Below are positions 6,858 through 64,000 of a DNA stretch of 64,000 bases, piece by piece. The notes beneath the pieces are model-generated. The model saw only the letters and a list, made by a program, of their open reading frames with translations. It was not told where the DNA came from and made no database searches. A program made the position numbers and the translations under genes. How positions within the stretch are numbered: the stretch's first letter is position 1; every line of letters starts with the position of its first letter. This DNA is from Alphaproteobacteria bacterium (GTDB taxonomy: Bacteria; Pseudomonadota; Alphaproteobacteria; CALKHQ01), in assembly GCA_050329975.1 (NCBI GenBank), contig JBHJOG010000207.1, positions 7,211 to 71,210 on the forward strand. Direction: 5' to 3'.

Positions 6858-7600
6858 GCACGACCGTCGTCGTCACCATGGCCGGCGAGGGCCGCCGCTT
6901 CCGCGACGCGGGCTACACAGTTCCGAAGTTTGCCGTCGCGGTGCACGGGCGCACGTTGCTCGACTGGTCGCTGACGAGCCTGCAGCGTTTCGCCGCCATG
7001 GGCACGCGGGCAATCTTCGTCGCACGCGCCGAGGAAGATCCGGTGGCGGCCATCGCGCGCGCCTGCGCCGCTGTCGGTTTCGCCAACTGGTCGGTTGTGA
7101 TGCTGGACAGGCCGACCGACGGCCAGGCGACGACCGTGCTCGCAGCCGAACCGGCCCTTGCCGATCCTGCCGACCGGCTGCTGGTGTGGAACGTCGACAC
7201 GCTGGTCTGGCCGGACGCCCTGGACCCTGCCGACTTTGCCGGCGACGGCTGGCTGCCATGTTTCCCGGGGCTCGGTGACGCCTGGAGCTTCGCCCGCGCC
7301 GATTCGTCGGGGTTGGTCGCGGAGGTGCGCGAGAAGCGGCGGATCTCCGGCGACGCCACCATCGGGCTCTACGGGTTCGCCAGCTGGCAGGCGTTTCGCG
7401 ACGCCTATGCCGACACCTACGCCGCCAGCGTGCCGCGCGAGGCGGGCGAGTGCTACGTGGCTCCGATCTACAACGCGATGATCGCCGCGGGCAAGGACGT
7501 GCGCCTGAGCCGGCTGCCCGCACACGCTGTGGTGCCGCTGGGGACGCCGGCCGACGTCGCGGCCTTCGCCGCCGCTGAGCCGGTCGTGGCCGCTGCATGA
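6854..7600 (+). CDS. MobA-like / sugar-phosphate nucleotidyltransferase family protein
   Basis: VVVTMAGEGRRFRDAGYTVPKFAVAVHGRTLLDWSL is an NTP-transferase N-terminal glycine-rich motif. The ATGA overlap with the upstream gene stop suggests translational coupling. Confidence 0.65.
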   Translation: MSTTVVVTMAGEGRRFRDAGYTVPKFAVAVHGRTLLDWSLTSLQRFAAMGTRAIFVARAEEDPVAAIARACAAVGFANWSVVMLDRPTDGQATTVLAAEPALADPADRLLVWNVDTLVWPDALDPADFAGDGWLPCFPGLGDAWSFARADSSGLVAEVREKRRISGDATIGLYGFASWQAFRDAYADTYAASVPREAGECYVAPIYNAMIAAGKDVRLSRLPAHAVVPLGTPADVAAFAAAEPVVAAA

Positions 7601-8793
7601 CCCTGCCGATCATCCTGCTCAAGGGACTGTCGCAGTACGGCGCGTTGCGGCTGCATGTCGAGCAGCTCGCCGCCGCGCTGCGGGCCCGCGGGCAGGAGGT
7701 GTTCGTCTTCGATCACGCCCAGGAGACCTCGGATCGGCTGGTTGCCGCGCTCAACGCGGGCTGCCGGGCGGTCGTCTCCTTCAATGGGGTCGGGCTCGAC
7801 ATGCTGGTCGAGGACAGGCCGTTCTACGACGTGGTCGGGGTGCCGCTGGTGACGATGATCGTCGACCACCCGGCCCACCACGCCCAGCGGCTGGCTGCAG
7901 CCGGGACCCGCGTGGTGATCAATGTGATCGACCGCAGCCACCTGGCCTGGCTTGCCGATGTGTTCGGCCGCGACCGCTTTCAGATCACCGGCCTGCTGCC
8001 GCCGGGCGGCAATGTGGACGCGCCCCCCGAGGACAACGACGTCGACTCGTTCCTGGCCCGGCGCGACATCGCGCTGCTGTTCACGGGCACCTACCGCGGC
8101 GTCCCCGAGCGCCAATGGTCGAAGCTGGGCAGCCCCTTCGTCCGTGGCGTCCTGGATGCCGCCGCCGACCTCTGCCTCGCGCATGACATGCTGCCGGTCG
8201 AAGAGGCCCTGCAGCAGGCGCTGGCCAGTCACGACGTGCAGGTGTCCGGCGAAACCCGGCGCCGGTTCTGGCGGCTGGCCGCGTCGCTCACCGACTTCGT
8301 GCATGGACTGCGCCGCCACCAGGCGCTGAGCGCGATCGGCGAAGCGGGCCTGCCGCTCAGCCTGTACGGCCGCGATTGGGACCCCTATCTCGAGGCCCAT
8401 CCGCACGTGGCCTACGGCGGTGAGGGCAGCTTCGAGGAAACGCTGCAGCACCTGAAGCGCACCCGGATCTGCCTCAACACCAACACAAATTTCGTCGCCG
8501 GCGCCCACGAGCGCGTGTTCGCCGCCCAGTGCGCGGGTGCCGCCGTGTGCACCGACGCCAGCCGCTACTACCAGGACATGTACCGGGACGGCGTGGACAT
8601 CATGCTCTACCGTTGGACCCGGCTTGCGGAACTGCCCGGTTTGATCGGCTCCTATCTGAACGACCCGCCCCGCCTGGCCGGGCTCGCCTTCGCCGGCAGG
8701 GCAACCGCCGAGGCACACCACGGCTGGGAGAGCCGCGCCGATACCCTGCTCGGTCAGATCGACATCTACTACGGATTCGGCCGCTGCGCCTGA
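7597..8793 (+). CDS. Hypothetical protein, GT-B glycosyltransferase-like (CgeB/DUF3880-like C-terminal region)
   Basis: It overlaps the upstream stop by ATGA. The N-terminal part looks like a Rossmann fold (ILLKGLSQYGALRLHVEQLAAALRARGQEVFVFD). The C-terminal TRICLNTNTNFVAGAHERVFAAQCAGAAVCTD resembles the GT1/CgeB C-terminal signature. The frame has high GC3. Confidence 0.5.
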   Translation: MTLPIILLKGLSQYGALRLHVEQLAAALRARGQEVFVFDHAQETSDRLVAALNAGCRAVVSFNGVGLDMLVEDRPFYDVVGVPLVTMIVDHPAHHAQRLAAAGTRVVINVIDRSHLAWLADVFGRDRFQITGLLPPGGNVDAPPEDNDVDSFLARRDIALLFTGTYRGVPERQWSKLGSPFVRGVLDAAADLCLAHDMLPVEEALQQALASHDVQVSGETRRRFWRLAASLTDFVHGLRRHQALSAIGEAGLPLSLYGRDWDPYLEAHPHVAYGGEGSFEETLQHLKRTRICLNTNTNFVAGAHERVFAAQCAGAAVCTDASRYYQDMYRDGVDIMLYRWTRLAELPGLIGSYLNDPPRLAGLAFAGRATAEAHHGWESRADTLLGQIDIYYGFGRCA

Positions 8794-9532: not shown

Positions 9533-10327
9533 ATGCAACTCACCGCCGACCAGCTGGAGACCTTCGACCGCGACGGCTGGCTTCTGCTCGAGGATATGTT
9601 CTCGGCGCCCGAGGTCGCGCTGCTGAAGCGCGAGGCCGCCCGGGTCTATGCCCTCGACCGCCCGGAGGTATTCCGGGAGAAGGACGGCAAGACCGCCCGG
9701 ACCGCCTTCGCCGCCCATACCTACAATGAGGCGTTCCGCCGTCTGGGCCGCCATCCGCGGCTGGTCGAGCCGGTGAAGCAACTCCTCGGCGGCGACGTCT
9801 ACATCCACCAGTACAAGCTGAACGCCAAGGCCGCTTTCGGCGGCGACGTCTGGCAATGGCACCAGGACTACGGCACCTGGGCCCGGGACGACGACATGCC
9901 CGAGGCGCGGGCCATGAACATAGCGCTGTTCCTGGATCCGGTGACCGAGTTCAACGGCCCGCTGATGTTCATCCCGGGTTCCCACAAGCAGGGCGTGATC
10001 GAGGCCGGCCACGACGTCGCCACCACCTCGTACCCGCTGTGGACGCTCGACCAGGACACCATCCGCCGGCTGGTCGCCGAGGGCGGCATCGTCGCGCCAA
10101 AGGGGGCCCCGGGGACGGTACTGATGTTCCATTCGACCCTGGTCCATGGCAGCTCCAGCAACATGTCCCCCTTCGACCGGTCGATCGTCTATCTGAGCCT
10201 GTGCCGGGTCGACAATCACATCCGGCGATTCTCGCGCCCGGAATGGATCGCCCACCGCGATTTCACGCCCATCGAATGCCTGCCGGACGATTGCCTGGCC
10301 CCGCTGCTGGGCGAGAAGGCAGCCTGA
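9533..10327 (+). CDS. Fe(II)/2-oxoglutarate-dependent dioxygenase of the phytanoyl-CoA dioxygenase (PhyH) family, ectoine-hydroxylase-like
   Basis: WQWHQDYGTWARDDDMP resembles the EctD signature F-x-W-H-S-D-F-E-T-W-H-x-E-D-G-M/L-P. A downstream ...HGSSSN... has the second His. An AGGAGG Shine-Dalgarno precedes the ATG. Confidence 0.75.
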   Translation: MQLTADQLETFDRDGWLLLEDMFSAPEVALLKREAARVYALDRPEVFREKDGKTARTAFAAHTYNEAFRRLGRHPRLVEPVKQLLGGDVYIHQYKLNAKAAFGGDVWQWHQDYGTWARDDDMPEARAMNIALFLDPVTEFNGPLMFIPGSHKQGVIEAGHDVATTSYPLWTLDQDTIRRLVAEGGIVAPKGAPGTVLMFHSTLVHGSSSNMSPFDRSIVYLSLCRVDNHIRRFSRPEWIAHRDFTPIECLPDDCLAPLLGEKAA

Positions 10328-10345
10328 TCGCAAAGGACAAGCCAC

Positions 10346-11698
10346 ATGAATTTGCACGCCCTCATGGCCGCCCGTGCCGACCGTCCCGTCCGGGTCGGGC
10401 TCATCGGTGCCGGCAAGTTCGGCGCCATGTTCCTGGCCCAGGTACCGTTCATGCCGGGCCTGCATGTGGCCGCGATCGCCGACCTGCGGCCGGACGGCGT
10501 GCGCGCGCGGCTGAAGGCGGTCGGCTGGGACGAGGCGCGCGGCCAGGCTGCGGACCTGGACGCCGCGCTGGCCACCGGCGGGACCTGGATCGGCGACGAC
10601 GCTATGGCGATGATCGCGTCCGAACCGATCGAGATCGTGATCGACGCCACCGGCGACCCAGCTTCCGGCATCGCTCACGCGCTCGCCTGCTTCGAACACG
10701 GCAAGCACCTGATCATGGTCAATGTGGAGGCGGACGCGCTGGCCGGGCCGCTGCTGGCGGAGCGGGCACGGCAGGCGGGGGTGCTCTACTCGCTCGCCTA
10801 TGGCGACCAGCCGGCGCTGATCTGCGAGCAGGTGGACTGGGCGCGGGCCTGCGGCATGCGCGTGGTGGCGGCTGGCAAGGGCACCCGCTACCGGCCGGAA
10901 TTCCACGGCTCCACCCCCGACACGGTCTGGGGCTATTACGGGCTGACGCCGGAGCAGGCCCAGGCGGCCGGCATGAACCCGAAGATGTTCAACTCCTTTC
11001 TCGACGGCACCAAGTCGGGCATCGAGATGGCGGCGGTGGCCAACGCCACCGGGCTGACCCCCAGCCCCGGCGGGCTGAAGTTCCAGCCCTGCGGTGTGCA
11101 TGACATCGCGCGGATGCTGCGGCCAGCGGAGGTGGGCGGCATCCTGCACCATGCCGGCCAGGTCGAGGTGATCTCCAGCGACGAATTCGACGGCCGCGCG
11201 GTGGTGGGCGACCTGCGCTGGGGCGTCTATGTGGTGATCGAGGGCCCAAGCGACTACGCCGCCCGCTGCTTCGGGGAGTACGGCATGATCACCGATCCGA
11301 CGGGCCGCTACACGGCGCTCTGGCGCCCCTACCACATGATCGGGCTCGAGCTCGGCGTCTCTGTCGCCAGCATCGCCGCCCGCGGCGAGGCGACGGGCGC
11401 GGCGCGGCAGTGGCTGGGCGATGTGGTGGCGACCGCCAAGCGCGACCTCGCACCGGGCGAAGAGCTGGATGGGGAGGGCGGCTACACCGTCTGGGGCCGG
11501 CTCTATCCGGCGGAGCGGTCGCTGGCCATCGGCGGCCTGCCGATCGGGCTGGCCGACAGGGCGCGGCTGCTGCATCCGGTCCAGGCCGGCCAGCCGGTCC
11601 GCTGGTCCGATGTGGCGCTGGACGCGGAGCAGCCGGCGGTCGCCCTGCGCCGCGAGATGGAGCGCGCCTACGCGCCGCAGGCGGACGCGGCGGAGTAA
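10346..11698 (+). CDS. NAD(P)-binding oxidoreductase, predicted homoserine-dehydrogenase-like (COG4091 type) with C-terminal SAF domain
   Basis: VRVGLIGAGKFGAMFL is a Rossmann GxGxxG. The C-terminal LAIGGLPIGLADRARLLHPVQAGQPVRWSDVAL is SAF-like. This is a family-level call only. Confidence 0.6.
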   Translation: MNLHALMAARADRPVRVGLIGAGKFGAMFLAQVPFMPGLHVAAIADLRPDGVRARLKAVGWDEARGQAADLDAALATGGTWIGDDAMAMIASEPIEIVIDATGDPASGIAHALACFEHGKHLIMVNVEADALAGPLLAERARQAGVLYSLAYGDQPALICEQVDWARACGMRVVAAGKGTRYRPEFHGSTPDTVWGYYGLTPEQAQAAGMNPKMFNSFLDGTKSGIEMAAVANATGLTPSPGGLKFQPCGVHDIARMLRPAEVGGILHHAGQVEVISSDEFDGRAVVGDLRWGVYVVIEGPSDYAARCFGEYGMITDPTGRYTALWRPYHMIGLELGVSVASIAARGEATGAARQWLGDVVATAKRDLAPGEELDGEGGYTVWGRLYPAERSLAIGGLPIGLADRARLLHPVQAGQPVRWSDVALDAEQPAVALRREMERAYAPQADAAE

Positions 11699-12855: not shown

Positions 12856-13728
12856 ATGAGCCAGCAGGCAATCCTGTCCATCCAGTCCCATGTCGCCTAC
12901 GGCCATGTCGGCAATGCGGCGGCGGTGTTCCCGCTGCAGCGGCTGGGGTTCGAGGTGTGGCCGATCCACACGGTGATGTTCTCCAACCATACGGGCTATC
13001 CGACCTTCCGCGGACCGGTGTTCAGCCCCGACGACCTGGGCTCGGTGTTCCAGGGGATCTTCGAGCGCGGCGTGCTGCCCGGCTGCGCTGCCGTGCTCAG
13101 CGGCTACATGGGAACGTCGGCCCTGGGGGAGGTCATCCTGGATGCCGTCCGCCGGGTGCAGGCCGCCAACCCGCGCGCGCTCTATTGCTGCGATCCTGTG
13201 ATGGGGGATGTGGATGGCGGCCTCTACGTCCGGGAAGGCATTCCCGAGTTCATGCTCAATCATGCCGTGCCGGCGGCAACGATCGTAACGCCGAACCAGT
13301 TCGAGCTCGGGCTGCTGACCGGGCACGACACGGCCACCCTGACCCACGTCCTCGCCGCAGCGAACCTGTTGCTCGGGCTCGGCCCGCGGCTGGTGCTGGT
13401 GACGAGCCTGGTGCGCGAGGAGGCACCCGACGATTCGATCGAGATGCTGCTGGTGGCGCAGGAGGGTGCGTGGCTTCTGGGAACCCCGCGCCTGCCCCTC
13501 GCGGTCGCGCCGAACGGGTCGGGCGACGCGACCGCGGCGCTGTTCCTGGCCAACGTCTTGCGCTTCGGCGCGCCGCAGGCCGCGCTCGAGGCGACGGCGG
13601 ACGCGATCTACGCCGTCTTCGAGGCCACCGCTGCGGCAGGGACCCGCGAACTGCAACTGATCGCCGCCCAGGAGGCGATCGCAGCGTCGCGGCCGGGCGG
13701 CCGCTTCCTGGCCGAACGGGTCGGCTGA
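12856..13728 (+). CDS. pdxY: Pyridoxal/pyridoxamine kinase
   Basis: ILSIQSHVAYGHVGNAAAVFPLQRLGFEVWPIHTVMFSNHTGY matches the PdxY N-terminus closely. The downstream region has a ribokinase-like GxGD region (VAPNGSGDATAALF). Confidence 0.85.
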   Translation: MSQQAILSIQSHVAYGHVGNAAAVFPLQRLGFEVWPIHTVMFSNHTGYPTFRGPVFSPDDLGSVFQGIFERGVLPGCAAVLSGYMGTSALGEVILDAVRRVQAANPRALYCCDPVMGDVDGGLYVREGIPEFMLNHAVPAATIVTPNQFELGLLTGHDTATLTHVLAAANLLLGLGPRLVLVTSLVREEAPDDSIEMLLVAQEGAWLLGTPRLPLAVAPNGSGDATAALFLANVLRFGAPQAALEATADAIYAVFEATAAAGTRELQLIAAQEAIAASRPGGRFLAERVG

Positions 13729-13738
13729 TCGGCCGGGA

Positions 13739-14209
13739 TCAGAACAGGCCCTCGAGGTCCGCGCGCGGCTGCGAGCCGGCCCAGTTCCATGTGCCATCCC
13801 GGTTGCAGACCGTCACCACCAGTGCCTTCGGCTCAGCTGGATCCTCCAGGGTGAAGATGATCTCGCGGCAGCGGGTGACCTCGCCGAACTCACGGACAAG
13901 CTCGACGTTGCCGTACTTGCCGCCGCCTGCCCAGCCTATCACCTCGCCTGGCTTGGCATCGCCGGTGGCGCGCGCAATCGCCGCCTGCAGGGCTTCCGTC
14001 TGTTGCTGCTCGTAGACGCCCCATGCGGTAGAGGCGCTCCAGCTCGCGATCACGCCCGCCGCCAGCCCGATCAGCGGATTGCCGGTCGCCGTGCCGGCAG
14101 CGAGGCCGACCCCGAGGCCGGCGCCCTGCTGGGTCGATTCCTGGCCCAGGGAACAGGCCGACAGCAGGGCCAGAGACAGAAGCATGGAACAGGATCGCAG
14201 GCGGATCAT
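13739..14209 (-). CDS. Glycine-zipper outer-membrane lipoprotein (17-kDa surface-antigen-like)
   Basis: It has an LLSACS lipobox and a Gly-zipper segment GLGVGLAAGTATGNPLIGLAAGVIASW. The C-terminal domain has a conserved Cys pair. Confidence 0.55.
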   Translation of the reverse strand: MIRLRSCSMLLSLALLSACSLGQESTQQGAGLGVGLAAGTATGNPLIGLAAGVIASWSASTAWGVYEQQQTEALQAAIARATGDAKPGEVIGWAGGGKYGNVELVREFGEVTRCREIIFTLEDPAEPKALVVTVCNRDGTWNWAGSQPRADLEGLF

Positions 14210-14263
14210 GATCGGGTACTCGTTCTGCTTCAGGGGCGCAGGGTAGAGGTCGCCGGGGCCGGT

Positions 14264-15679
14264 TCAGTTCCCGTCGGCAGGTGGCCAGTGTCCCTCCGCC
14301 TTGGCTGCGACAGCCGCCGCAAGCGCCGTCCGCGCCCTGGCGAACACCTCTGCCCATTCCCCCGGCACCTGCTGGCGGAACAGCCGCATCGAGGGGTACC
14401 AGGGGGTCCGATCGCTGTCGACCGGGTAGATCCAGTAAGGATGGTAGGGCAGCAGGTTCCAGACCGGGCGGCCGAGAGAACCGCACAGGTGGGCAACCGA
14501 ACTGTCGGTCATGATCACCAGGTCGAGCATCTCGATCGCGGCGGCGGTCTCGGCGAAGTCGTCCACACGGGTCCCGATATCGAGAATCACAGCATCGGCG
14601 CCCGAGGCGACGAGGTCGCCCTCGCGCGGACCCTTCTGCAGGCTGTAGAGCTGGACGCCGGGCACGGTCCCGAGCGGCAGGAACTGCTCGAGGGAGACCG
14701 CCCGCTTCGCGTTGCCCTTGAAGGTGACGCTGCCGGACCAGACGATGCCGACCTTGAAGCGGTCGCCGCCCGGGGCGATCAGAGGGGCGACGCGCGCGCG
14801 CGCTGCTTCCGGCACGGTCAGCGCCACGGGGGCGCCCGGCGCCATCACGTCGGCGCCGAGGATCCGCGGCAGCGTCATCAGCGAGCAATGGGTGTCGAAG
14901 GCCTCAAACCGCTCCTCGGATGCGACCAGCCGGGAGACGCCGGGACACCCCTGGAGCAGCCGGCGCAGCGGGGGCTTGCATTCCAGGACGACGACCGCCT
15001 CCTGCTCCACCAGCTGCGGCAGGAAGCGCAGCGCCATCAGCGTGTCGCCGTAGCCCTGTTCGGGATGCAGGTAGATGGTCTTGCCCGCCAACGGCTCGCC
15101 GTTCCATTCCGGCTGGGGATAGCTGCGCGGCTTGACCTCGCCGGTCTGCCGACGGGCCTCGTAGTCGCGCCAGCCATCGCGGCTGCGTCCGAGGTGAAGC
15201 AGGATCAGGGACCGGTCCCAGCGATAGGTCGGGTTGTCGGGCTTGCGGGCGACGAGGGTGTCCAGTTGGGTCAGCGCCTCCTCGAACCGCGTCGCCTCGC
15301 GCAGGGCAACCGCGTAGTTGTGTCGGCCGCGGTCGTCGTCGGGATCGCGGGCGACCACCGCCTGCTGCAGCGCGAGCGCCTCGTCGAGACGGTCCATGTC
15401 TTTCAGCACGTTGCCGAGGTTGCCCATCGCCGCCACGTCGTCCGGCGCCAGCTCCAGCGCCCGGCGATAGCAGATCTCGGCGGCCGCAAACGCCTTCCGC
15501 TCGCGCAGCGCCACGCCGAGGTTGCACCAGATGCCGCTGTCCTGCGGCCGCACGGCGAGGTAGCGGCGGTAGAGCGGGATCGCCTGCTCGGTCCTACCGC
15601 CCTGGTGCAGCCGGATGGCGTCGGCGCGGACGGCAGCCAGGGGATCGGCCCCACCGGCAGCCGCCCCATTGTCCTTCAT
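14264..15679 (-). CDS. TPR-repeat protein fused to glycosyltransferase family 9 (heptosyltransferase-like) domain; FlmG-like candidate flagellin glycosyltransferase
   Basis: The N-terminal ~180 aa hold four or more TPR repeats (e.g. AIPLYRRYLAVRPQDSGIWCNLGVAL; AEICYRRALELAPDDVAAMGNLGNVL). The C-terminal region has GT9 motifs (KVGIVWSGSVTFKGNAKRAVS; DSSVAHLCGSLGRPVWNLL). Confidence 0.75.
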   Translation of the reverse strand: MKDNGAAAGGADPLAAVRADAIRLHQGGRTEQAIPLYRRYLAVRPQDSGIWCNLGVALRERKAFAAAEICYRRALELAPDDVAAMGNLGNVLKDMDRLDEALALQQAVVARDPDDDRGRHNYAVALREATRFEEALTQLDTLVARKPDNPTYRWDRSLILLHLGRSRDGWRDYEARRQTGEVKPRSYPQPEWNGEPLAGKTIYLHPEQGYGDTLMALRFLPQLVEQEAVVVLECKPPLRRLLQGCPGVSRLVASEERFEAFDTHCSLMTLPRILGADVMAPGAPVALTVPEAARARVAPLIAPGGDRFKVGIVWSGSVTFKGNAKRAVSLEQFLPLGTVPGVQLYSLQKGPREGDLVASGADAVILDIGTRVDDFAETAAAIEMLDLVIMTDSSVAHLCGSLGRPVWNLLPYHPYWIYPVDSDRTPWYPSMRLFRQQVPGEWAEVFARARTALAAAVAAKAEGHWPPADGN

Positions 15680-15704
15680 GGCTGTCGGGCCCTCGGGCGA
15701 AGCT

Positions 15705-16730
15705 TCAAGCGGCCGCGCGGAGGTAGTCGCGGGTCAGCAGCTCGGCGATCTGCACCGCGTTGGTCGCCGCACCCTTGCGCAGGTTGTCGGCGACGATCCA
15801 CATCGAGAGGCCGTAGGGCACGGTCGGATCCTTGCGCAGGCGGCTGACAAAGACCTTGTCTTCGCCCGCAACCTCCGCCGGCGTGACGTAGCCTTCGTCG
15901 ACCCGATGGTCGATGACGCCGGCGCCGTCGGCCTCGCGGATGGCCTCGCGCGCCGTGTCCTCGTCGATCGGGCGCGCGAATTCCACAGTTACCGCCTCGG
16001 CATGACCGACGAACACCGGAACGCGCACGCAGGTCGCCTGCACCTTGATGTCGGGGTCGAGGATCTTGCGCGTCTCGACCGCCATCTTCCACTCTTCCCT
16101 GGTCGAGCCGTCTTCCATGAAACTGTCGATGTGCGGGATCACATTGAAGGCGATCTGCTTGGTGAACAATTCCGGCTTGATCGGATCGTTGACGTAGACG
16201 CCGCGGGTCTGGGTGAACAGCTCGTCCATACCCGCCTTGCCGGCGCCGGAAACCGACTGGTAGGTGGCGACGACGATCCGGGTGATCTTGGCGAGGTCGT
16301 GCAACGGCTTCAGCGCCACCAGCATCTGGATGGTCGAGCAGTTGGGGTTGGCGATGATGCCGCGTTTGGCGTAGCCGCCGATCGCTTGCGGGTTCACTTC
16401 CGGCACGATCAGCGGCACGTCGGGGTCCATACGGAAATGGGACGTATTGTCGATCACCACTGCCCCGGCGCGCGCCGCACGCGGCGCATGCTCGGCCGAA
16501 ATCTTCGAGCCCGGGGAGAACAGGGCGATGTCGATGCCCTTGAAGTCGAAGGTCGCCAGGTCGCGTGCGGTCAGGATCTGCTCGTCCCCGAAGGAGAGCT
16601 CCGTCCCGACCGACCGGCTCGAGGCCAGCGCAACCACCTCGTCGGCGGGAAACTCGCGGTCGGCGAGCGTGTTCAGCATCTCGCGGCCCACATTGCCCGT
16701 GGCTCCGACGACTGCGACCCGATATCCCAT
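15705..16730 (-). CDS. asd: Aspartate-semialdehyde dehydrogenase
   Basis: MGYRVAVVGATGNVGREML... with the active-site region ...IIANPNCSTIQMLVALKPL. The 42-aa upstream extension in the track was rejected. Confidence 0.9.
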   Translation of the reverse strand: MGYRVAVVGATGNVGREMLNTLADREFPADEVVALASSRSVGTELSFGDEQILTARDLATFDFKGIDIALFSPGSKISAEHAPRAARAGAVVIDNTSHFRMDPDVPLIVPEVNPQAIGGYAKRGIIANPNCSTIQMLVALKPLHDLAKITRIVVATYQSVSGAGKAGMDELFTQTRGVYVNDPIKPELFTKQIAFNVIPHIDSFMEDGSTREEWKMAVETRKILDPDIKVQATCVRVPVFVGHAEAVTVEFARPIDEDTAREAIREADGAGVIDHRVDEGYVTPAEVAGEDKVFVSRLRKDPTVPYGLSMWIVADNLRKGAATNAVQIAELLTRDYLRAAA

Positions 16731-16975
16731 AGTCCTGCTCCAGTTCCGCGCCTTTCCGGCGCGCCATGACCGGCTCCGTCGCGTCGCGCCGCGTGAGGCG
16801 GAACCCTTCGCCGCTGCCGTCCGCGATGCTGGTGCGAAGCCCGCCGACGGTGGCATGATAGGCTGCGGACCGCCGGCAACGGCGTGTTAAGTAGAGGCTT
16901 TCCGCCGAAAGTTCAATGCGCCTCGTGCAGGCAGACCGCCGGGGTAGAAGCCCGGCGATACACAGGAGCAACCCG

Positions 16976-17314
16976 ATGGCGCGCCGCTGCTCATCCTATG
17001 GCGAGTTCTGGCCCGTTTACCTGCGCGAGCATTCTCGGCCGAGGACGCGCCTGATCCACTTCGTCGGCACCGGCGCCTCGCTGCTGGCCCTGATCGTCGC
17101 TCTGGCCACCCAGACCTGGTGGCTGCTGATCGTGGTGCCGATCGCCGGCTACGCACCGGCCTGGTATGCGCATTTCGTGGTCGAGCGCAACCGGCCGGCC
17201 ACGTTCACCCATCCGTTCTGGTCGCTGATCAGCGACTTCCGCATGTTCTTCCTATGGTGCGCAGGCCAGCTCGAACCGGAGCTCAGGCGCGCTGGCATCG
17301 TCAGCAATCCCTGA
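16976..17314 (+). CDS. DUF962 (Mpo1-like) membrane protein
   Basis: FWPVYLREHSRPRTRLIHFVGT is the DUF962 N-terminal signature. An AGGAG Shine-Dalgarno lies 8 nt upstream of the ATG at 16976. Two transmembrane segments are present. Confidence 0.65.
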   Translation: MARRCSSYGEFWPVYLREHSRPRTRLIHFVGTGASLLALIVALATQTWWLLIVVPIAGYAPAWYAHFVVERNRPATFTHPFWSLISDFRMFFLWCAGQLEPELRRAGIVSNP

Positions 17315-57371: not shown

Positions 57372-58199
57372 CTAACCGAACAGCTGCAGCACGTTGCGCT
57401 CATTCTGGGCGGAGAGCGAAAGCGCGTTGGTGGCCAGCTGCTGCCGGGTCTGCAGGGCAAGCAGGTTGGCGCTTTCCTCGTTCATGTCGGCGAGCGTCAG
57501 CTTGCCCGCACCCTGCTCGAGGGTGTTGACCAGGCTCTGGGTGAAGCTCAGGCGCGTCTTCAGCACCGTGTTGTTCGAGCCCAGCGCCGCGGCATTTGTC
57601 CGCAACTCGATCAGGGCCGCATTCACCGAACTCAGCGCCGCGTCGACGTCGCCCTCGCTGCCCCAGTTGTTCGTCGCCGTGCCGATCGAGAGCCCGCCCG
57701 CGCTCGACGTCGACCGCAGGTGGGCGATCGTCAGCTTGGATGTGCCGTCCTCGTTGAAATCTACGGTCAGCGTGTCGGAGCCGCCGTCGATCAGGTTGAC
57801 GCCGTTGTAGCTGGCGTCCCGGGCGAGGTCGTTGAGCTGGGTCAGCAGCTCGGTGAACTGGTGGGCCAGCCCGGAGCGCTCCGCCGCGCTGCCCGAAGAC
57901 TTCGCCTTGGTCGCCAGGCCCTTGGCCTGCTCGACCAGGTCGGTGATCGACTCGATGCCGTCGATGGCGGCCTGGATCGTGCTGATCGCCTGGTCGACGT
58001 TGTCCTTCAGTCGGCCCAGATCGCCGGCCCGGTCGCTGAGCGCCCGCGACTGGAAATAGGCGGTCGGGTCGTCCAGTGCGGAACTGACCTTGAGCCCGGT
58101 CGCCAGACGGTTCTGCGTCGTGTTGACCAGGTCCGAGGTGCGCTGAAGCGTCAGCAGGTTGTCACGTACGATCTGGGAAAGAGCAATCTTGGCTGCCAT
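57372..58199 (-). CDS. Flagellin (short, 275 aa)
   Basis: The conserved flagellin N-terminus is MAAKIALSQIVRDNLLTLQRTSDLVNTTQNRLATGLKVSSALDDPTAYF. The C-terminus is ...LLALQTRQQLATNALSLSAQNERNVLQLF. A GGAGGATGAA Shine-Dalgarno is present. The track start at 58280 was rejected. Confidence 0.9.
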   Translation of the reverse strand: MAAKIALSQIVRDNLLTLQRTSDLVNTTQNRLATGLKVSSALDDPTAYFQSRALSDRAGDLGRLKDNVDQAISTIQAAIDGIESITDLVEQAKGLATKAKSSGSAAERSGLAHQFTELLTQLNDLARDASYNGVNLIDGGSDTLTVDFNEDGTSKLTIAHLRSTSSAGGLSIGTATNNWGSEGDVDAALSSVNAALIELRTNAAALGSNNTVLKTRLSFTQSLVNTLEQGAGKLTLADMNEESANLLALQTRQQLATNALSLSAQNERNVLQLFG

Positions 58200-58320
58200 T
58201 TCATCCTCCGGTGTCGCCATGCGCTGCTGACATTCTGCAGCGCGTTGGTGTTCAGCTTTCTGCTCCGGTTGGCGTCGCAACCGGACAGGTCGTCACGGCA
58301 TTGCCGCAACAGGTTCGGTA

Positions 58321-58336
58321 AGGTTAACGGCAACCG
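58321..58336 (-). promoter_or_regulatory. Sigma-54 (-24/-12) promoter TGGCAC-GCCGG-TTGC for the downstream flagellin gene
   Basis: The match to TGGCAC-N5-TTGC is exact on the minus strand. The predicted TSS is ~110 nt upstream of the flagellin ATG. flbD is in the window. Confidence 0.7.
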
Positions 58337-58581
58337 GCGTGCCAACACGTGCACCGGCCCCGGAGGAGCGGCGAGTGCATCTGTTGAATCCGAGATGTAT
58401 CAGTGGTTTAGCCGAACTCTCCGGTGGAGCGGAGGCTGGCCGCGACAGGGTAAAGGCCGCACTGGGCGCCGTGGCCGGGGGAAAACTCTGCCGGCCGATG
58501 GCAATTCGTGCCGGGACATATCGGTCGCGTCGGCGACCCGAGGGCTCATGCGGCCCGGCCTGCGGCGAGGTCGTCGCGGGC

Positions 58582-58610
58582 AAAAAAAATGGCGGGGCCG
58601 AAGCCCCGCC
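58582..58610 (-). terminator. Rho-independent terminator after the upstream flagellin copy
   Basis: The minus-strand sequence reads GGCGGGGC-TTCG-GCCCCGCC followed by ATTTTTTTTG, 30 nt after the stop. Confidence 0.85.
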
Positions 58611-58638
58611 AGATCGCGATCGAAGGTTCTTGGTTCGG

Positions 58639-59466
58639 TTAGCCGAGGAGCCCCAGCACCGACCGCTCGGACTGTGCCGACAACGCAAGGGCGTTGGTGG
58701 ACAGCTGCTGGCGGGTCTGCAGCGCGAGCAAGTTCGCGCTTTCCTCGTTCAGGTCGGCGAGCGTCAGCTTGCCGGCGCCGCTCTGCAGCGTGTTGACCAT
58801 CTTGGAGGTGAACTCCAAGCGGGTCTGCAGGACGGCGTTGTTGGAACCGAGCGTGGACGCGTTGGTCCGCAGTTCGGTCAGCGCAGCGTTGACTGAGCTC
58901 AGGGCCGCGTCGACGTCGCCGTCGGACGCGAAGTTGCCCGTAGCGCCGGCGATCGAGAGTCCGCCGGCACTGGCGTTCGACCTCATGTGCGCGATCGTCA
59001 GCCGCGAGGTTCCGTCCTCGTTGAAGTCGACCGTCAACTCGTCGTCGCCGCCGTCGATCAGGTTGACGCCGTTGTAGCTCGAGTCCCTCGCCAGGTCGTT
59101 GATCTGGGTCAGGATGTCATCGAACTGCGAGGCCAGGCTCGACCGCTCGGTGGCGTCACCGGACGACTTCGCCTTGGTCGCCAGACCCTTCGCCTGCTCG
59201 ACCAGACTCGTGATGCCCTCGATACCGTCGATGGCTGCACCGATCGTGCTGACCGCCTGGTCGATATTCGACTTCAGCGTGTTGAGGTCGCCGGCGCGGT
59301 CGGTCAGGCTCTTTGCCTGGAAGAACGCAGAGGCGTCGTCCAGAGCGGACGAAACCTTCAGGCCGGTGGCAAGGCGGTTCTGGGTAGTGTTGATCAGGCT
59401 CGCCGTGCCGGTCAGGGTCAGCAGGTTGTTGCGTACCGGTGCTGAGAGAGCAATGCTAGCAGCCAT
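58639..59466 (-). CDS. Flagellin (short, 275 aa), paralogue of the 57372..58199 product
   Basis: MAASIALSAPVRNNLLTLTGTASLINTTQNRLATGLKVSSALDDASAFF... The termini are highly similar to the first copy, and the central region diverges. Confidence 0.9.
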   Translation of the reverse strand: MAASIALSAPVRNNLLTLTGTASLINTTQNRLATGLKVSSALDDASAFFQAKSLTDRAGDLNTLKSNIDQAVSTIGAAIDGIEGITSLVEQAKGLATKAKSSGDATERSSLASQFDDILTQINDLARDSSYNGVNLIDGGDDELTVDFNEDGTSRLTIAHMRSNASAGGLSIAGATGNFASDGDVDAALSSVNAALTELRTNASTLGSNNAVLQTRLEFTSKMVNTLQSGAGKLTLADLNEESANLLALQTRQQLSTNALALSAQSERSVLGLLG

Positions 59467-59954: not shown

Positions 59955-60818
59955 ATGGTCCAGTTCATCGCCGAGATATCCAGCAACCATGCCCGCGATC
60001 CGGGCCGCTGCGCCGCACTGATCGCGGCGGCCGCAGCGGCCGGCTGCGACGCGGTCAAGTTCCAGCTCTTCCGGGTCGACGCGTTGTTCGCGCCGGAAAT
60101 CCTCGCCCGCAGCGCCGAGCATCGCCGGCGGAAGGACTGGGAGCTGCCGGTCGAGCTGATCCCGCAACTCGCGGCGCAGGCGCGGGATCGAGGAATGGCC
60201 TTCGGCTGCACGCCCTTCGACCTCGATGCCGTCGAGGCGTTGCGCGCGCATGTGGATTTTCTGAAGGTCGCTTCCTATGAGCTGATCTGGCGTGACCTCA
60301 TCGCGGCCTGCGCGCGCACCGGGCTGCCGACCATCCTGTCCACCGGCATGGCCACCCTCGAAGAGGCGGTCGCCGCGGTCGCCGGCGCGCGCGAAGACGG
60401 CGCGGGCGACCTCACGGTCCTGCACTGCGTTTCGAGCTACCCGACGCCGCCCGCCCAATGCAACCTGGCGGCCATGGCCACCATCGCGCGCGCCTGCGGC
60501 GTACCGGTGGGCTGGTCCGACCACAGCCGATCGCCCGAGGTGGTGCTGCGCGCAGTCCATCGCTGGAATGCGGCAATGGTCGAGTTCCACCTCGACCTCG
60601 ATGGATCCGGCGCCGAGTACGCCCCGGGCCATTGCTGGCTGCCCGAGGAGATCGCGCCGGTGATTGCCGCCTGTCGCCAGGGGGCGGTGCTCGACGGCGA
60701 CGGCAAGAAGGCGCCGCAGCCCTGCGAGCTGGCCGATCGGGACTGGCGGGCGGACCCCGTCGACGGCCTCCGGCCGCTGCTGGCAACCCGCGCCCGGTGG
60801 CTGGAGGAGGCATCGTGA
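59955..60818 (+). CDS. neuB: Nonulosonic acid (sialic/pseudaminic/legionaminic acid) synthase family protein (NeuB/PseI-like), short form without obvious SAF domain
   Basis: FIAEISSNHARDPGRCAALIAAAAAAGCDAVKFQLF...FLKVASYELIW...TILSTGMATLEE...LHCVSSYPTPP fits NeuB family motifs (IAEIGxNHxG; KFQ; hCvS.YP). Confidence 0.8.
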   Translation: MVQFIAEISSNHARDPGRCAALIAAAAAAGCDAVKFQLFRVDALFAPEILARSAEHRRRKDWELPVELIPQLAAQARDRGMAFGCTPFDLDAVEALRAHVDFLKVASYELIWRDLIAACARTGLPTILSTGMATLEEAVAAVAGAREDGAGDLTVLHCVSSYPTPPAQCNLAAMATIARACGVPVGWSDHSRSPEVVLRAVHRWNAAMVEFHLDLDGSGAEYAPGHCWLPEEIAPVIAACRQGAVLDGDGKKAPQPCELADRDWRADPVDGLRPLLATRARWLEEAS

Positions 60819-62629
60819 GGCCGATCGCGCCTGTGCGCCGGGTCGTAGCCGTCGTCCAGGCTCGCATGGGGTCGAGCCGGCTGCCTGGCAAGGCGCTGAT
60901 GCCGCTCGCCGGCCGGCCGGTGATCTGGCACGTCCTGGAGCGGCTCGCGCGCGCGCAGCGGCTCGACCAGGTCGTGCTGGCGACGACCACGGCCGCTGCC
61001 GATGATGCGCTTGCCGACTATGTCACCGGCCTCGGCGTCGTGGTCGTCCGTGGGTCGGAGCGCAATGTGCTCGCCCGTTTCATTCAGGCCGCCGAGCTGA
61101 CCCGCGCCGACGTCGTGGTCCGCATCACCGGCGATTGCCCGCTGGTCGACCCGTGGCTCGTCGACTACCTGGTCGATGCGCTGGCAGCGGATGCCGGCTA
61201 TGTCCAGGTCAACCCCGACGGCGTGCTGATCGACGAAGGCATCGATCCATGCACCACGTGGGCCCTGCACCGGCTCGCCGCCCAGGCCGGCGACGATCCG
61301 GTGGCCCAGGAGCACGTCACCAGCTACTTCAAGCTGCACCCTGGCTTCGTCCCCGTCGCCCGCTGTCCGGCGCCGGAGGACCGCCGGCTGGAAGGCGCCA
61401 GGATTTCCGTCGATACGCCGGCCGACCTGCGCTTTCTCGAGAGAATCTACGAGCGAATGCAGGCTGCCCCCGGCGACCTCGACGTGGTCGCCCTGGTCGG
61501 GCTGCTCCGGGCCGAGCCCGAGCTGATGACGCTGAATCGGCATGTGGTGCGCAAGCAGACGCGGGTAGACGACCGCTGCGTCCTTATCCGCTGTGACGGC
61601 TATGCCGCGATCGGGCTCGGTCACGTCGTGCGCTGCCTGGCGATCGCCGAGGCGCTCCGCGATCGGCATGGCCTGCGGGTGGTTCTTGCCGTGGACCAGG
61701 GCCGTCCTGCACAGGACCTCGTCGCCCGTCAGGGCTTCAAGCTGGCCGAGGCACGCTGCGACGGCGAATGCGAAGCCGCCTGGATCGACCGGACGCTGGC
61801 CGCCACCGGCGCCGAAGCGCTGGTGCTCGACATTCGCACTGACCTTCCTGCCGATACGGTCCGCCGCTGGCGGCAACGTGGGACGGTGACAGCGGTCGTC
61901 GACGACGGCAGCCCGCGTCGGCTTGCTGCGGACCTCGCCTTCTTTCCGCCGGTGCCGCAGCTGAAGGACCTGGACTGGTCGGGCTTCTCCGGGGCGCTGT
62001 TTGTCGGCTGGGACTATCTTGCGCTGCGCCGAGAGTTCGCACGTACACGTCGTGCGCTCCCCGCCGGCGACGGTCGACGGCTGCGGCTGCTGGTCACCAT
62101 GGGCGGGTCGGACCCGGCCGGTGCCACCGCGGTGGCGATCGAGGCGCTGGCCGGCCTTGCCGCAGATGTTGCGGTGACCGTCGTGGTCGGCGCCGCCAGC
62201 CTCGAAAGGGACCGGATTGCCGCGCTGGTCGTCACGCATCTGCCCGGCGGCCGCCTGCTCTATGGGAGCGACGACATGCCGGCGCTGATGGCGGCGGCCG
62301 ACCTCGCCGTCATCGCCTTCGGGATGACCGCCTACGAGGCGGCCGCGGTCGGCACCCCGACCCTTGCCCTCTGTCTGTCGGCAGATCACGAGGCCAGCGC
62401 GCGCGCGCTCGCGGACGAGGGAGCCCTCGTCGTCGCCGGCAGGATCGGGGTGGTGACGGCAGCCGGGCTTGCCCCGCAGATCGCCGCTCTGATCGCAAAT
62501 CGCGACCGGCTTGCGGCGATGGGCGAGGCCGGAGGCCGGCTGATCGATGGTCGGGGCGCCGATCGCATCGCCGACCGGATCATGGCCCGGCTCGCGCAGC
62601 GCGAGCGTGGCCCTCTGGTCGCCGCGTGA
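60815..62629 (+). CDS. Fusion protein: N-terminal CMP-nonulosonate synthetase-like cytidylyltransferase (SpsF/PseF/FlmC-like) + C-terminal PseG/FlmD-like UDP-sugar hydrolase (GT28-C-like)
   Basis: GTG start with a GGAGGAGG Shine-Dalgarno, overlapping the neuB stop (GTGA). The N-terminal motif is VVAVVQARMGSSRLPGKALMPLAGRPVIWHVLER (CTP_transf_3 pattern). The middle region has CVLIRCDGYAAIGLGHVVRCLAIAEAL (PseG GxGHxxRC motif). The C-terminal region has LVTMGGSDPAG...AADLAVIAFGMTAYEAAAVGTPTLAL (MurG-like). The track start at 60458 was rejected. Confidence 0.7.
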   Translation: MRPIAPVRRVVAVVQARMGSSRLPGKALMPLAGRPVIWHVLERLARAQRLDQVVLATTTAAADDALADYVTGLGVVVVRGSERNVLARFIQAAELTRADVVVRITGDCPLVDPWLVDYLVDALAADAGYVQVNPDGVLIDEGIDPCTTWALHRLAAQAGDDPVAQEHVTSYFKLHPGFVPVARCPAPEDRRLEGARISVDTPADLRFLERIYERMQAAPGDLDVVALVGLLRAEPELMTLNRHVVRKQTRVDDRCVLIRCDGYAAIGLGHVVRCLAIAEALRDRHGLRVVLAVDQGRPAQDLVARQGFKLAEARCDGECEAAWIDRTLAATGAEALVLDIRTDLPADTVRRWRQRGTVTAVVDDGSPRRLAADLAFFPPVPQLKDLDWSGFSGALFVGWDYLALRREFARTRRALPAGDGRRLRLLVTMGGSDPAGATAVAIEALAGLAADVAVTVVVGAASLERDRIAALVVTHLPGGRLLYGSDDMPALMAAADLAVIAFGMTAYEAAAVGTPTLALCLSADHEASARALADEGALVVAGRIGVVTAAGLAPQIAALIANRDRLAAMGEAGGRLIDGRGADRIADRIMARLAQRERGPLVAA

Positions 62630-63555
62630 TGCCGGCGAGCGCGCTCGCCGCGGTGCGGCACGACGGCCCGTTGCTGGCCGAGCGCGACGGCTTTGCGGTT
62701 ATCGACTGCACGGGCTGCGGCTATGCCCATGCCATGCCGCTCCCCAGCGTGGACGCGCTGATCGATACCTACCGCCATGACTATTATGCCGCGGAGAAGC
62801 CGCTTTACCTGGCGCGGACCGAGGAGGACCGCGCCTGGTGGCTCGACGTCTACGATGAACGCGTGGCCACAATGGAGGCCTGGCGGGGCCAGGCCCCCGG
62901 AGCGATTCTCGACATCGGCAGCGGCCCCGGCCTGTTTCTCGACGCGGCCGCGGCGCGCGGCTGGCGCACGCGCGGGGTCGAGCCGTCCCGCCAGGCCGCC
63001 ACCCATGCGCGCGGGCTCGGCCACGAGATCCGCGAAGGCTTCTTCGGGGCGGCGATGGCCGCGTCGCTGGACCCGGTCGACGCCGTACACATGGCGCTGG
63101 TGCTGGAGCATGTGCCGGAGCCGGCCAGCCTGCTTGCTGCGGCGCGCGGGCTGCTGCGGCCGAGCGGTGTCCTCTGCGTCGTGGTGCCGAACGACTTCAG
63201 TCCGTTGCAGCGGGTGGTGGAGGGGCAGGGAATGGCACCTTGGTGGGTGGCCCCGCCGCACCACCTCAACTACTTCACCCCCGTGAGCCTGACCGCCCTG
63301 CTGGAACGCACCGGGTTTACCGTCGTCGAGCGCACCGCCACCTTCCCGATGGAGCTGTTCCTGCTGATGGGCGAGGCCTATGTCGGCGACGACGCCCTCG
63401 GGCGCGCCTGCCACGGCAAGCGCAAGGCCTTCGAGACCGCGATGCGGCGGGCCGGGCAGTCAGACCGGCTGGCGCGGCTCTATCGCAGCCTGGCCGACCA
63501 GGGCCTCGGCCGCGAGATCGTGCTGTACGCGCGCGCCGCCGGCAGCGCGCGATGA
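62626..63555 (+). CDS. Class I SAM-dependent methyltransferase
   Basis: Motif I is ILDIGSGPGLF. Motif post-I/II follows (GWRTRGVEPS..., VDAVHMALVLEHVPEP). ATGA overlap with the upstream stop. Confidence 0.75.
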   Translation: MMPASALAAVRHDGPLLAERDGFAVIDCTGCGYAHAMPLPSVDALIDTYRHDYYAAEKPLYLARTEEDRAWWLDVYDERVATMEAWRGQAPGAILDIGSGPGLFLDAAAARGWRTRGVEPSRQAATHARGLGHEIREGFFGAAMAASLDPVDAVHMALVLEHVPEPASLLAAARGLLRPSGVLCVVVPNDFSPLQRVVEGQGMAPWWVAPPHHLNYFTPVSLTALLERTGFTVVERTATFPMELFLLMGEAYVGDDALGRACHGKRKAFETAMRRAGQSDRLARLYRSLADQGLGREIVLYARAAGSAR

Positions 63556-64000
63556 AGGGCACCCGTCCGATCTTCGTCGTCGGCAGCGGCCGGTCCGGCA
63601 CTGCCGCCCTGGCCAGGGTCCTGGGCAGCGTGCCGGGCGTGGAAATGCACCACGAGTATCTGTGCACCCATATCCAGCCGGTCTCCGCCCGTTACGCCAT
63701 GGGCCGCGCCGATGTTGCCGAGGTGCGCACGGTTCTCGATGCCTGCCACGGCGCGGCAATCAGGCTCAGCAGCGCCGGGATCTGGGGCGACAGCTCCAAC
63801 AAGCTGTCATGGATCATGCCTATCCTGGCCGAACTCTATCCCGACGCCCGCTACGCCCATGTCGTACGCGACGGGCGCAAGGTGGCGAGCTCCTTTTTTC
63901 ACAAGCTCGCCGACGAGTGCTACGACGACGCCAGCGTCGCTGCGCTCGCCGACTGGCTCGACGGCAGGGGCGTGATGCCGCCGCCGGAAAAGCGCTACTG
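63552..64000 (+). CDS. Sulfotransferase-family protein (partial; continues beyond window end)
   Basis: MKGTRPIFVVGSGRSGTAALARVL resembles the 5'-PSB PAPS-binding loop of bacterial sulfotransferases. The ATG overlaps the methyltransferase stop (GATGA). The frame has high GC3 and stays open to the window end. It is not in the supplied track. Confidence 0.5.
   Translation, partial: MKGTRPIFVVGSGRSGTAALARVLGSVPGVEMHHEYLCTHIQPVSARYAMGRADVAEVRTVLDACHGAAIRLSSAGIWGDSSNKLSWIMPILAELYPDARYAHVVRDGRKVASSFFHKLADECYDDASVAALADWLDGRGVMPPPEKRY

Follow-up and report, generated by a model that had tools for sequence, protein, structure and literature searches.

An asd-linked paralogue of FlmG in an alphaproteobacterium: a TPR-fused, GT9-like glycosyltransferase that is probably not the flagellin pseudaminyltransferase

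Results

The asd-linked gene and its product

The stretch of DNA analysed here (the window, 64,000 nucleotides) carries, directly behind asd, a gene for a tetratricopeptide repeat (TPR) protein with a predicted glycosyltransferase domain, which we refer to below as the target. The features of this part of the window are as follows.

14264..15679, minus strand: target gene, encoding a 471-aa TPR + GT-B protein (GT9-like, FlmG superfamily); open reading frame, codon bias, identical database protein, AlphaFold2 model
15146..15649, minus strand: N-terminal TPR domain, residues about 11-178, five helix pairs; Pfam, AlphaFold2 helices H13 to H178, PDB matches to OGT and consensus TPRs
14297..15112, minus strand: C-terminal GT-B glycosyltransferase domain, residues about 190-461, GT9-like fold
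15044..15046, minus strand: codon of D212 in the invariant EQG-x-GD motif, aligned to the WaaC catalytic base Asp13; invariant in 39 family members, alignment and residue map
14489..14506, minus strand: codons of D392-H397 (D-S-S-V-A-H), GT9-type donor-sugar motif; aligned to WaaC D261-H266 and WaaF N-D-S-G-L-M-H
15680..15704, minus strand: 25-nt spacer that separates the target from asd and carries a GAGGG Shine-Dalgarno-like motif; sequence, promoter/terminator scan
15705..16730, minus strand: asd, aspartate-semialdehyde dehydrogenase, 341 aa, probable start at Met43 of the longest open reading frame; Pfam Semialdhyde_dh and Semialdhyde_dhC, homologues of 338-341 aa in L005-L008

The target open reading frame runs from ATG to stop and has a coding-type third-position GC content of 0.89. 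Its product is identical to P0001 (MGF1626112.1), a protein of an alphaproteobacterial metagenome-assembled genome (MAG) that is annotated there only as 'tetratricopeptide repeat protein'. Pfam recognises TPRs of many families at residues about 11-178 (E 1e-12 to 1e-16), and an AlphaFold2 model of the protein, built with 39 homologues (pLDDT 92.4, pTM 0.88), has ten TPR helices followed by two Rossmann-like halves, which bears out the fusion of N-terminal TPRs to a C-terminal GT9-like GT-B domain proposed in an earlier note on this DNA. Judged from its sequence, the N-terminus has neither a signal peptide nor a transmembrane segment, and the protein is most likely soluble and cytoplasmic. The gene does lie 25 nt downstream of asd on the same strand, as that note had stated. 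The two genes are probably co-transcribed, because the short spacer carries the GAGGG motif and a scan of positions 13600-17100 gave no promoter-like and no terminator-like site (0 and 0).

The pairing with asd is conserved

The earlier note had also called the asd context unexpected. This view does not hold: asd lies directly upstream of the target orthologue, on the same strand, in 4/4 other genomes with readable context (5/5 if the window is included), and the arrangement is thus not an odd one.

L005: orthologue 76% identical to the target, asd immediately upstream
L006: orthologue 65% identical to the target, asd immediately upstream
L007 (Pelagibius): orthologue 52% identical to the target, asd immediately upstream
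L008 (complete 4.6-Mb chromosome): orthologue tandemly duplicated, asd immediately upstream

The neighbourhood is partly shared as well, with a divergent Mpo1-like gene upstream of asd in the window, L005, L007 and L008, and a pyridoxal-kinase-like gene downstream in the window and L005-L007. No flagellar or nonulosonate genes are found within 8 kb of the asd-linked orthologue in L005-L008. In the window itself the target lies about 42 kb from the flagellin genes, and is not encoded together with flagellar, flagellin or nonulosonate genes. The position next to asd is therefore a stable position of the core genome. A search with the C-terminal domain returned more than 2,900 proteins, the best 120 of which are 48-83% identical to it, about 450-530 aa long and TPR-fused, and belong to Pelagibius, Denitrobaculum and MAGs of Kiloniellales and Dongiaceae. 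The asd-linked proteins form a separate paralogue clade, fixed downstream of asd across a broad Rhodospirillales-like group of Alphaproteobacteria.

The catalytic domain has a GT9-like fold

The Pfam GT9 model (PF01075, gathering threshold 22 bits) scores the target below threshold, at 13.5 bits over its full length and 14.3 bits when only the C-terminal domain is scored, and no NCBIfam model matches the target. Searches of PDB sequences with the whole target or a whole-family profile were dominated by TPR matches, and a profile of the C-terminal domain reached the GT9 structure 3TOV with a non-significant E value of 0.1, so that a comparison of folds was needed. The comparison of the target model with solved structures gave the following scores.

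3TOV (GT9): 19.6, 246 residues aligned
WaaF (1PSW): 18.1
WaaC (2H1F): 16.2
TibC (4RAP, protein heptosyltransferase): 15.8

The solved folds nearest to the GT-B domain are thus those of GT9, the family of the lipopolysaccharide (LPS) heptosyltransferases. On the strength of this model, the catalytic domain is a GT9-like GT-B domain at the level of fold, despite its sub-threshold Pfam score, and the GT9 call made from the sequence was right at that level. WaaC, WaaF and 3TOV are only 11-16% identical to the target, which differs from them in its additional TPR domain and in having no LPS genes around it.

The alignment places D212 of the target on WaaC D13, and D392, S393 and H397 on WaaC D261, T262 and H266. 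Asp13 acts as catalytic base in WaaC, where hydrogen bonds link Asp261 and His266 to heptose hydroxyls and the alpha-phosphate is bound by the backbone of Thr262/Gly263 (bioRxiv 10.1101/2021.06.16.448588). The target thus has both the catalytic Asp and the D-(S/T)-G-x-x-H type of motif expected of a GT9 enzyme. Its site is nonetheless not a strict GT9 copy, since the position of WaaC Lys192 is occupied by Asn323 in the target and by Asn in its family. D212, D392, S393 and H397 are invariant across the asd-linked family (n=39 members), in which the mean column identity is only 52%, and invariance of catalytic and donor-site residues at such a level of divergence is typical of active enzymes. 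It is consequently very improbable that the target is a non-catalytic scaffold that has kept a GT9-like fold, as in the plant NDH subunit PnsB1.

Given that LPS heptosyltransferases are the nearest solved folds and that the sugar-contacting D and H of GT9 are kept, the target might be a glycosyltransferase of glycolipid or polysaccharide synthesis resembling an LPS-core heptosyltransferase, in which the TPRs would serve only complex assembly or localisation. A cluster of kinase, nucleotidyltransferase and glycosyltransferase genes 6-9 kb from the target, in the window and in L005, would fit such a role. We nevertheless consider it quite unlikely: the GT9 score stays under the gathering threshold, neither the window nor any of the four syntenic loci contains LPS-core or lipid A genes, and FlmG, the sole characterised TPR-fused relative, acts on a protein (PMC7591256), as does TibC, which has the GT9 fold. 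An LPS heptosyltransferase in a full LPS-core setting, one of two findings that the earlier note had named as speaking against its proposal, was rejected because such genes are absent from these regions.

Three other classes of transferase were compared with the target. The autotransporter heptosyltransferases TibC/AAH (BAHT family) lack a TPR domain and have about 11% sequence identity to the target; they are iron-containing dodecamers. O-GlcNAc transferase (OGT, GT41) and the bacterial OGT-like enzymes resemble the target in placing a TPR superhelix ahead of a GT-B catalytic domain, and the TPRs of OGT match those of the target strongly. These OGT matches are confined to residues about 11-180, Pfam Glyco_transf_41 has no match in the target, and the catalytic domain is accordingly not of the GT41 type. 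Finally, the Maf model (MAF_flag10/DUF115, GT-A) has no Pfam match in the target, in any gene of the window or in the approximately 10 kb of the flagellin glycosylation island that we viewed (see below), which leaves no Maf-type candidate for the flagellin enzyme in these regions.

The target is homologous to FlmG over both domains

FlmG (CCNA_01524) of Caulobacter crescentus/vibrioides is a flagellin pseudaminyltransferase made of TPRs and a GT-B domain (PMC7591256). We recovered its gene through an exact-match scan with primer NK-74 (first 20 nt; PMC7591256 supplement), which led to Caulobacter vibrioides; the open reading frame encodes 596 aa, as published (PMC7591256), and is followed by the GNAT gene flmH. 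In BLASTP the target and FlmG are 28% identical over 458 aa (E 2e-31), a stretch that takes in the TPRs and all of the C-terminal domain, and hhalign of the family profile with FlmG gives a probability of 99.95% (E 1.8e-37, 419 columns). The full-length target scores 111-114 bits against FlmG and its C-terminal domain alone 68.9 bits (E 6e-17, 27% identity), within a family whose C-terminal domains score 69-80 bits. FlmG itself has a weak, sub-threshold Pfam GT9 signal too (11.7 bits). Because both alignments span the TPR and the C-terminal domain, and because the two proteins give the same weak GT9 signal, these comparisons identify the target as a true homologue of FlmG across both domains, beyond mere shared modular logic. 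The resemblance to FlmG that the earlier note had drawn is thus stronger than the analogy it was presented as.

Both proteins are cytoplasmic, the target by prediction, and share, besides their domain order, the EQG-x-GD and P-W-Y-P-S-x-R motifs. They differ in several respects. The target is 125 aa shorter and has five TPRs, compared with a TPR region of 313 aa in FlmG; the GT9 residues D392 and H397 are retained in it but replaced by S and N in FlmG; its family reads GDT(I/L)(L/M) in the N-terminal motif, where FlmG reads GDEVMF; and it adjoins asd, whereas FlmG sits in a flagellar/flm setting. To our knowledge, FlmG is the sole characterised member of its enzyme class.

The flagellin glycosylation island has its own TPR-glycosyltransferases

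A flagellar cluster occupies about 38-59 kb of the window and comprises fliI, fliJ, flhA, flhF, a MinD-like gene, a sigma-54 activator gene, fliN, fliG and fliF, as well as flgE, flgD, fliK, flaF and two flagellin genes. It is followed by the start of a glycosylation island that crosses the end of the window.

57372..59466, minus strand: two flagellin genes, 57372..58199 and 58639..59466; Pfam Flagellin_N and Flagellin_C, gene calls in the sister assembly L004
59955..64000, plus strand: flagellin glycosylation island, start only; continuation in L004 and L009
59955..60818, plus strand: NeuB-family synthase
60815..62629, plus strand: cytidylyltransferase-PseG fusion
62629..63555, plus strand: methyltransferase
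63552 onward, plus strand: sulfotransferase-methyltransferase fusion

The PseG-like half of the fusion at 60815-62629 matches TIGR03590 over nearly its full length, with 133.5 bits, below the equivalog cutoff; since this is the PseG hydrolase model, we rejected that half as a candidate transferase.

The sister assembly L004 has the same flagellin locus and continues past position 64000 with the sulfotransferase-methyltransferase fusion, a split transketolase, an SDR and an ATP-grasp enzyme. L009, a collinear island of a related organism that was reached via a 65%-identical homologue of the sulfotransferase-methyltransferase fusion, then encodes a TPR protein of 483 aa, flaG, two further TPR proteins (532 and 533 aa) and part of a fourth. 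All three complete TPR proteins are FlmG homologues, so this island holds at least three TPR-glycosyltransferase genes. They score 167-188 bits against FlmG over their full length and 134-150 bits over the C-terminal domain (33-35% identity). The organism of the window has such a protein as well: MGF1626161.1 (P0244), a TPR-glycosyltransferase of 483 aa, is 61% identical to the L009 protein, and its C-terminal domain scores 125 bits against FlmG (35% identity). This protein is known from its record, and is placed on the contig of the target by two features of that record: its contig is 78,631 bp long, exactly as is that of the target and of the sulfotransferase-methyltransferase fusion (MGF1626156.1), and it comes five accessions after this fusion, an offset that matches the gene order of L009.

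With these proteins in view, the earlier note's remark that no glycosyltransferase sits beside the Pse genes and flagellins stands for the window, in which the target is the sole FlmG homologue and no second one occurs, but fails for the island as a whole, given MGF1626161.1 five genes past the window end. The island TPR-glycosyltransferases (MGF1626161.1 and the L009 proteins of 483, 532 and 533 aa) are about 25-31% identical to the target and share its superfamily and architecture, but unlike the asd-linked target they are encoded within a flagellin/Pse/flaG island. The C-terminal domains of the island proteins score 113-150 bits against FlmG, as against 69 bits for that of the target. Both types of paralogue coexist in three genomes: that of the window organism, GCA_041396705.1 (MEZ5669309.1 and MEZ5669618.1) and the genome of a 1,447,929-bp contig (P0010 and P0250).

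FlmG groups with the island proteins

An alignment of C-terminal domains was made from the target, 15 members of its family, FlmG and six island proteins, with Escherichia coli WaaC and WaaF as outgroup, and a neighbour-joining tree was built from 294 columns, rooted on WaaC/WaaF, with 200 bootstraps. FlmG and the island proteins are monophyletic in 200/200 bootstraps, as is the asd-linked family (200/200), and FlmG groups with the asd-linked family in 0/200. With 11-16% identity the outgroup is a very remote one, and the rooting therefore rests on a long branch; the motif states independently agree with this rooting. The motif of the catalytic Asp reads EQG-x-GDE(L/V)MF in FlmG and the island proteins and EQGFGDT(I/L)(L/M) in the target family, the latter being nearer to the G-D-V/M pattern of GT9. 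At the donor site, WaaF has N-D-S-G-L-M-H, WaaC V-D-T-G-L-S-H and the target family T-D-S-x-x-A-H, whereas FlmG has F-S-N-A-T-I-N and the island proteins, for example, C-A-S-S-V-A-E, with both the Asp and the His lost. The target, with GDTLM and T-D-S-S-V-A-H, has neither of the FlmG-type active-site motifs. Tree and motifs together indicate that the target lies outside the FlmG clade. The profile check of the C-terminal domain against GT9 and FlmG that the earlier note had suggested thus returned significant homology to FlmG, but a sub-threshold GT9 score and a place outside the clade of FlmG.

Discussion

Our analysis suggests that the target is an asd-linked paralogue of FlmG, namely a cytoplasmic, TPR-guided glycosyltransferase that uses a GT9-type donor and has a probably proteinaceous acceptor, and that it is not the flagellin pseudaminyltransferase. 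We favour this reading with moderate confidence. By analogy with the known TPR-fused enzymes, the five-repeat TPR module would pick a protein client, and the GT9-like GT-B domain would then transfer a sugar taken from its nucleotide-sugar donor, D212 being the putative general base. A protein acceptor is probable from the TPR module and from the precedents of FlmG, OGT and TibC, and it would probably differ from that of FlmG. A donor sugar other than that of FlmG is argued for by the sugar-contacting residues, which are GT9-like in the target and changed in the Pse-transferring FlmG clade. These two retained residues point to an NDP-heptose or NDP-hexose as the probable kind of donor rather than to a CMP-nonulosonate.

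The earlier note had put the target forward as the best candidate for the transfer of pseudaminic acid to flagellin. According to this proposal the asd-linked protein would be the flagellin glycosyltransferase, or one of several, its TPRs binding both flagellins and its GT-B domain transferring the sugar made by the island. Several observations are in keeping with it: the target is truly homologous to FlmG, has its architecture and is its only homologue in a 64-kb window that holds a large flagellar cluster, neither the window nor about 10 kb of the island shows a Maf gene, and the island encodes many sugar-modifying enzymes, such that more than one transferase could be needed. We nevertheless regard a role on flagellin as unlikely. 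Collinear islands, and the island of this contig itself, contain FlmG-clade TPR-glycosyltransferase genes, the target is excluded from their clade in all bootstraps, and its donor-site residues are unlike those of FlmG. Moreover, its adjacency to asd is conserved at loci without nearby flagellar genes, and it coexists with the island-type enzymes and does not replace them. The target is thus not the best candidate, because its pairing with asd is conserved, the island holds TPR-glycosyltransferases of its own and FlmG groups with these island proteins. The role of flagellin pseudaminyltransferase is most likely better assigned to the FlmG-clade gene or genes of the island past the window end.

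Returning to the target as a paralogue with a client of its own, it is possible, although we put this forward only tentatively and with some doubt, that the asd-linked family constitutes a conserved cytoplasmic system of protein O-glycosylation in Rhodospirillales-like bacteria, in which ADP-heptose or another NDP-sugar would serve as donor and the TPRs would choose a housekeeping, non-flagellar protein. If true, this system would be a bacterial counterpart of OGT-like regulatory glycosylation, and would offer a first functional handle on a superfamily of more than 38,000 clusters in which FlmG alone is characterised. The family, which retains the ancestral GT9 donor site, is in any case a candidate, and a tractable one, for a new protein-glycosylation activity in the cytoplasm. 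For annotation, our results imply that TPRs in a FlmG-like architecture are by themselves insufficient to call a flagellin glycosyltransferase, and that such a call also requires the clade, both motifs and the gene context.

FlmG enzymes have been described as narrowly distributed and restricted to the Caulobacterales (bioRxiv 10.1101/2023.12.03.569772). The island proteins described here indicate by their sequences that FlmG-clade enzymes occur in flagellin islands of Alphaproteobacteria outside this order, and these enzymes, together with the two discriminating motifs, may outweigh the original claim about the target in importance. Our literature search found nothing on TPR + GT9 protein glycosyltransferases, on FlmG-like enzymes outside the Caulobacterales or on the breadth of the superfamily. 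By sequence similarity, the catalytic domain of FlmG belongs to a very large GT9-like superfamily that extends far beyond the Caulobacterales: an exhaustive search with the C-terminal domain of the target returned 38,593 cluster representatives (50% identity, E ≤ 1e-3), 15,807 of them at E ≤ 1e-30. Many members of this superfamily are giant proteins in which the domain is repeated 2-6 times in tandem.

FlmG-clade genes and the nonulosonate island

FlmG-type flagellin glycosyltransferases were published as being confined to the Caulobacterales (bioRxiv 10.1101/2023.12.03.569772), a limit that is contradicted by FlmG-clade TPR-GT genes in the islands of non-Caulobacterales Alphaproteobacteria. 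In L009, the collinear flagellin island of a related organism, three complete genes and one partial gene of this clade are grouped with flaG (L009:15925-21141, on to 22004) at the far end of the flagellin/nonulosonate island. Another member, P0244 (MGF1626161.1), is placed by its protein record and accession order on the window's own contig, past 64000. The presence of more than one FlmG-clade paralogue per island suggests several transfer specificities.

Two other parts of the island are relevant here (L004 being the sister assembly with the same flagellin locus):

59955-62629: NeuB-family synthase and cytidylyltransferase-PseG-like fusion gene
62629-64000; L004:1-5915; L009:9057-15909: tailoring genes

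At only 287 aa, the NeuB-family synthase is short and apparently without the SAF domain that is usual at the C-terminus; its scores against the NeuB and PseI models are equal and fall under both cutoffs. Its gene overlaps the next by 4 nt, and that next gene encodes a fusion of a cytidylyltransferase of the KdsB/CTP_transf_3 type with a PseG-like hydrolase domain. Besides a methyltransferase, an SDR and an ATP-grasp ligase, the unusual tailoring set comprises a sulfotransferase-methyltransferase fusion of 670 aa and a transketolase split into N and C subunits; it suggests that the flagellin nonulosonic acid is heavily modified.

The asd-linked TPR-GT locus

The following features surround the asd-linked TPR-GT:

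5088-8793 (+): APH-family kinase (589 aa), NTP_transf_3 nucleotidyltransferase and Glyco_trans_1_2 protein
9533-11698 (+): PhyH dioxygenase, then DRL-type oxidoreductase with a SAF domain
13739-14209 (-): 156-aa protein, 54 nt downstream of the TPR-GT
15705-16856 (-): longest asd ORF, 383 aa

Judged by its homologues, which are 338-341 aa long, the longest asd ORF has 42 extra codons at its 5' end, and the ATG at 16730 is likely to be the true start. The 156-aa protein, with no match in Pfam or NCBIfam, has a lipoprotein-type signal peptide (lipobox L-S-A-C); its gene is conserved in L005, another genome's TPR-GT locus, and not in L006-L008. In L008 (CP030885.1, a complete 4.6-Mb chromosome), the TPR-GT is tandemly duplicated right after asd (L008:6578-9374), the first copy encoding 470 aa and the second 457 aa.

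The kinase, nucleotidyltransferase and Glyco_trans_1_2 genes likely form one operon. The same five genes, from APH kinase to DRL-type oxidoreductase, flank the TPR-GT in L005 (L005:11641-17410), and could constitute a sugar-1-phosphate activation pathway.

Other observations

The flagellar cluster contains an ORF with no match in a Pfam search and a coding-type codon bias, lying between fliJ and a MinD/FlhG-like gene:

41206-42714 (-): 502-aa ORF

Among the C-terminal-domain search matches (P0361-P0394), some of the closest representatives of 50%-identity clusters are giant proteins, 1,500-3,100 aa long and with 3-6 tandem copies of the GT9-like domain, a striking architecture that appears to be uncharacterised.
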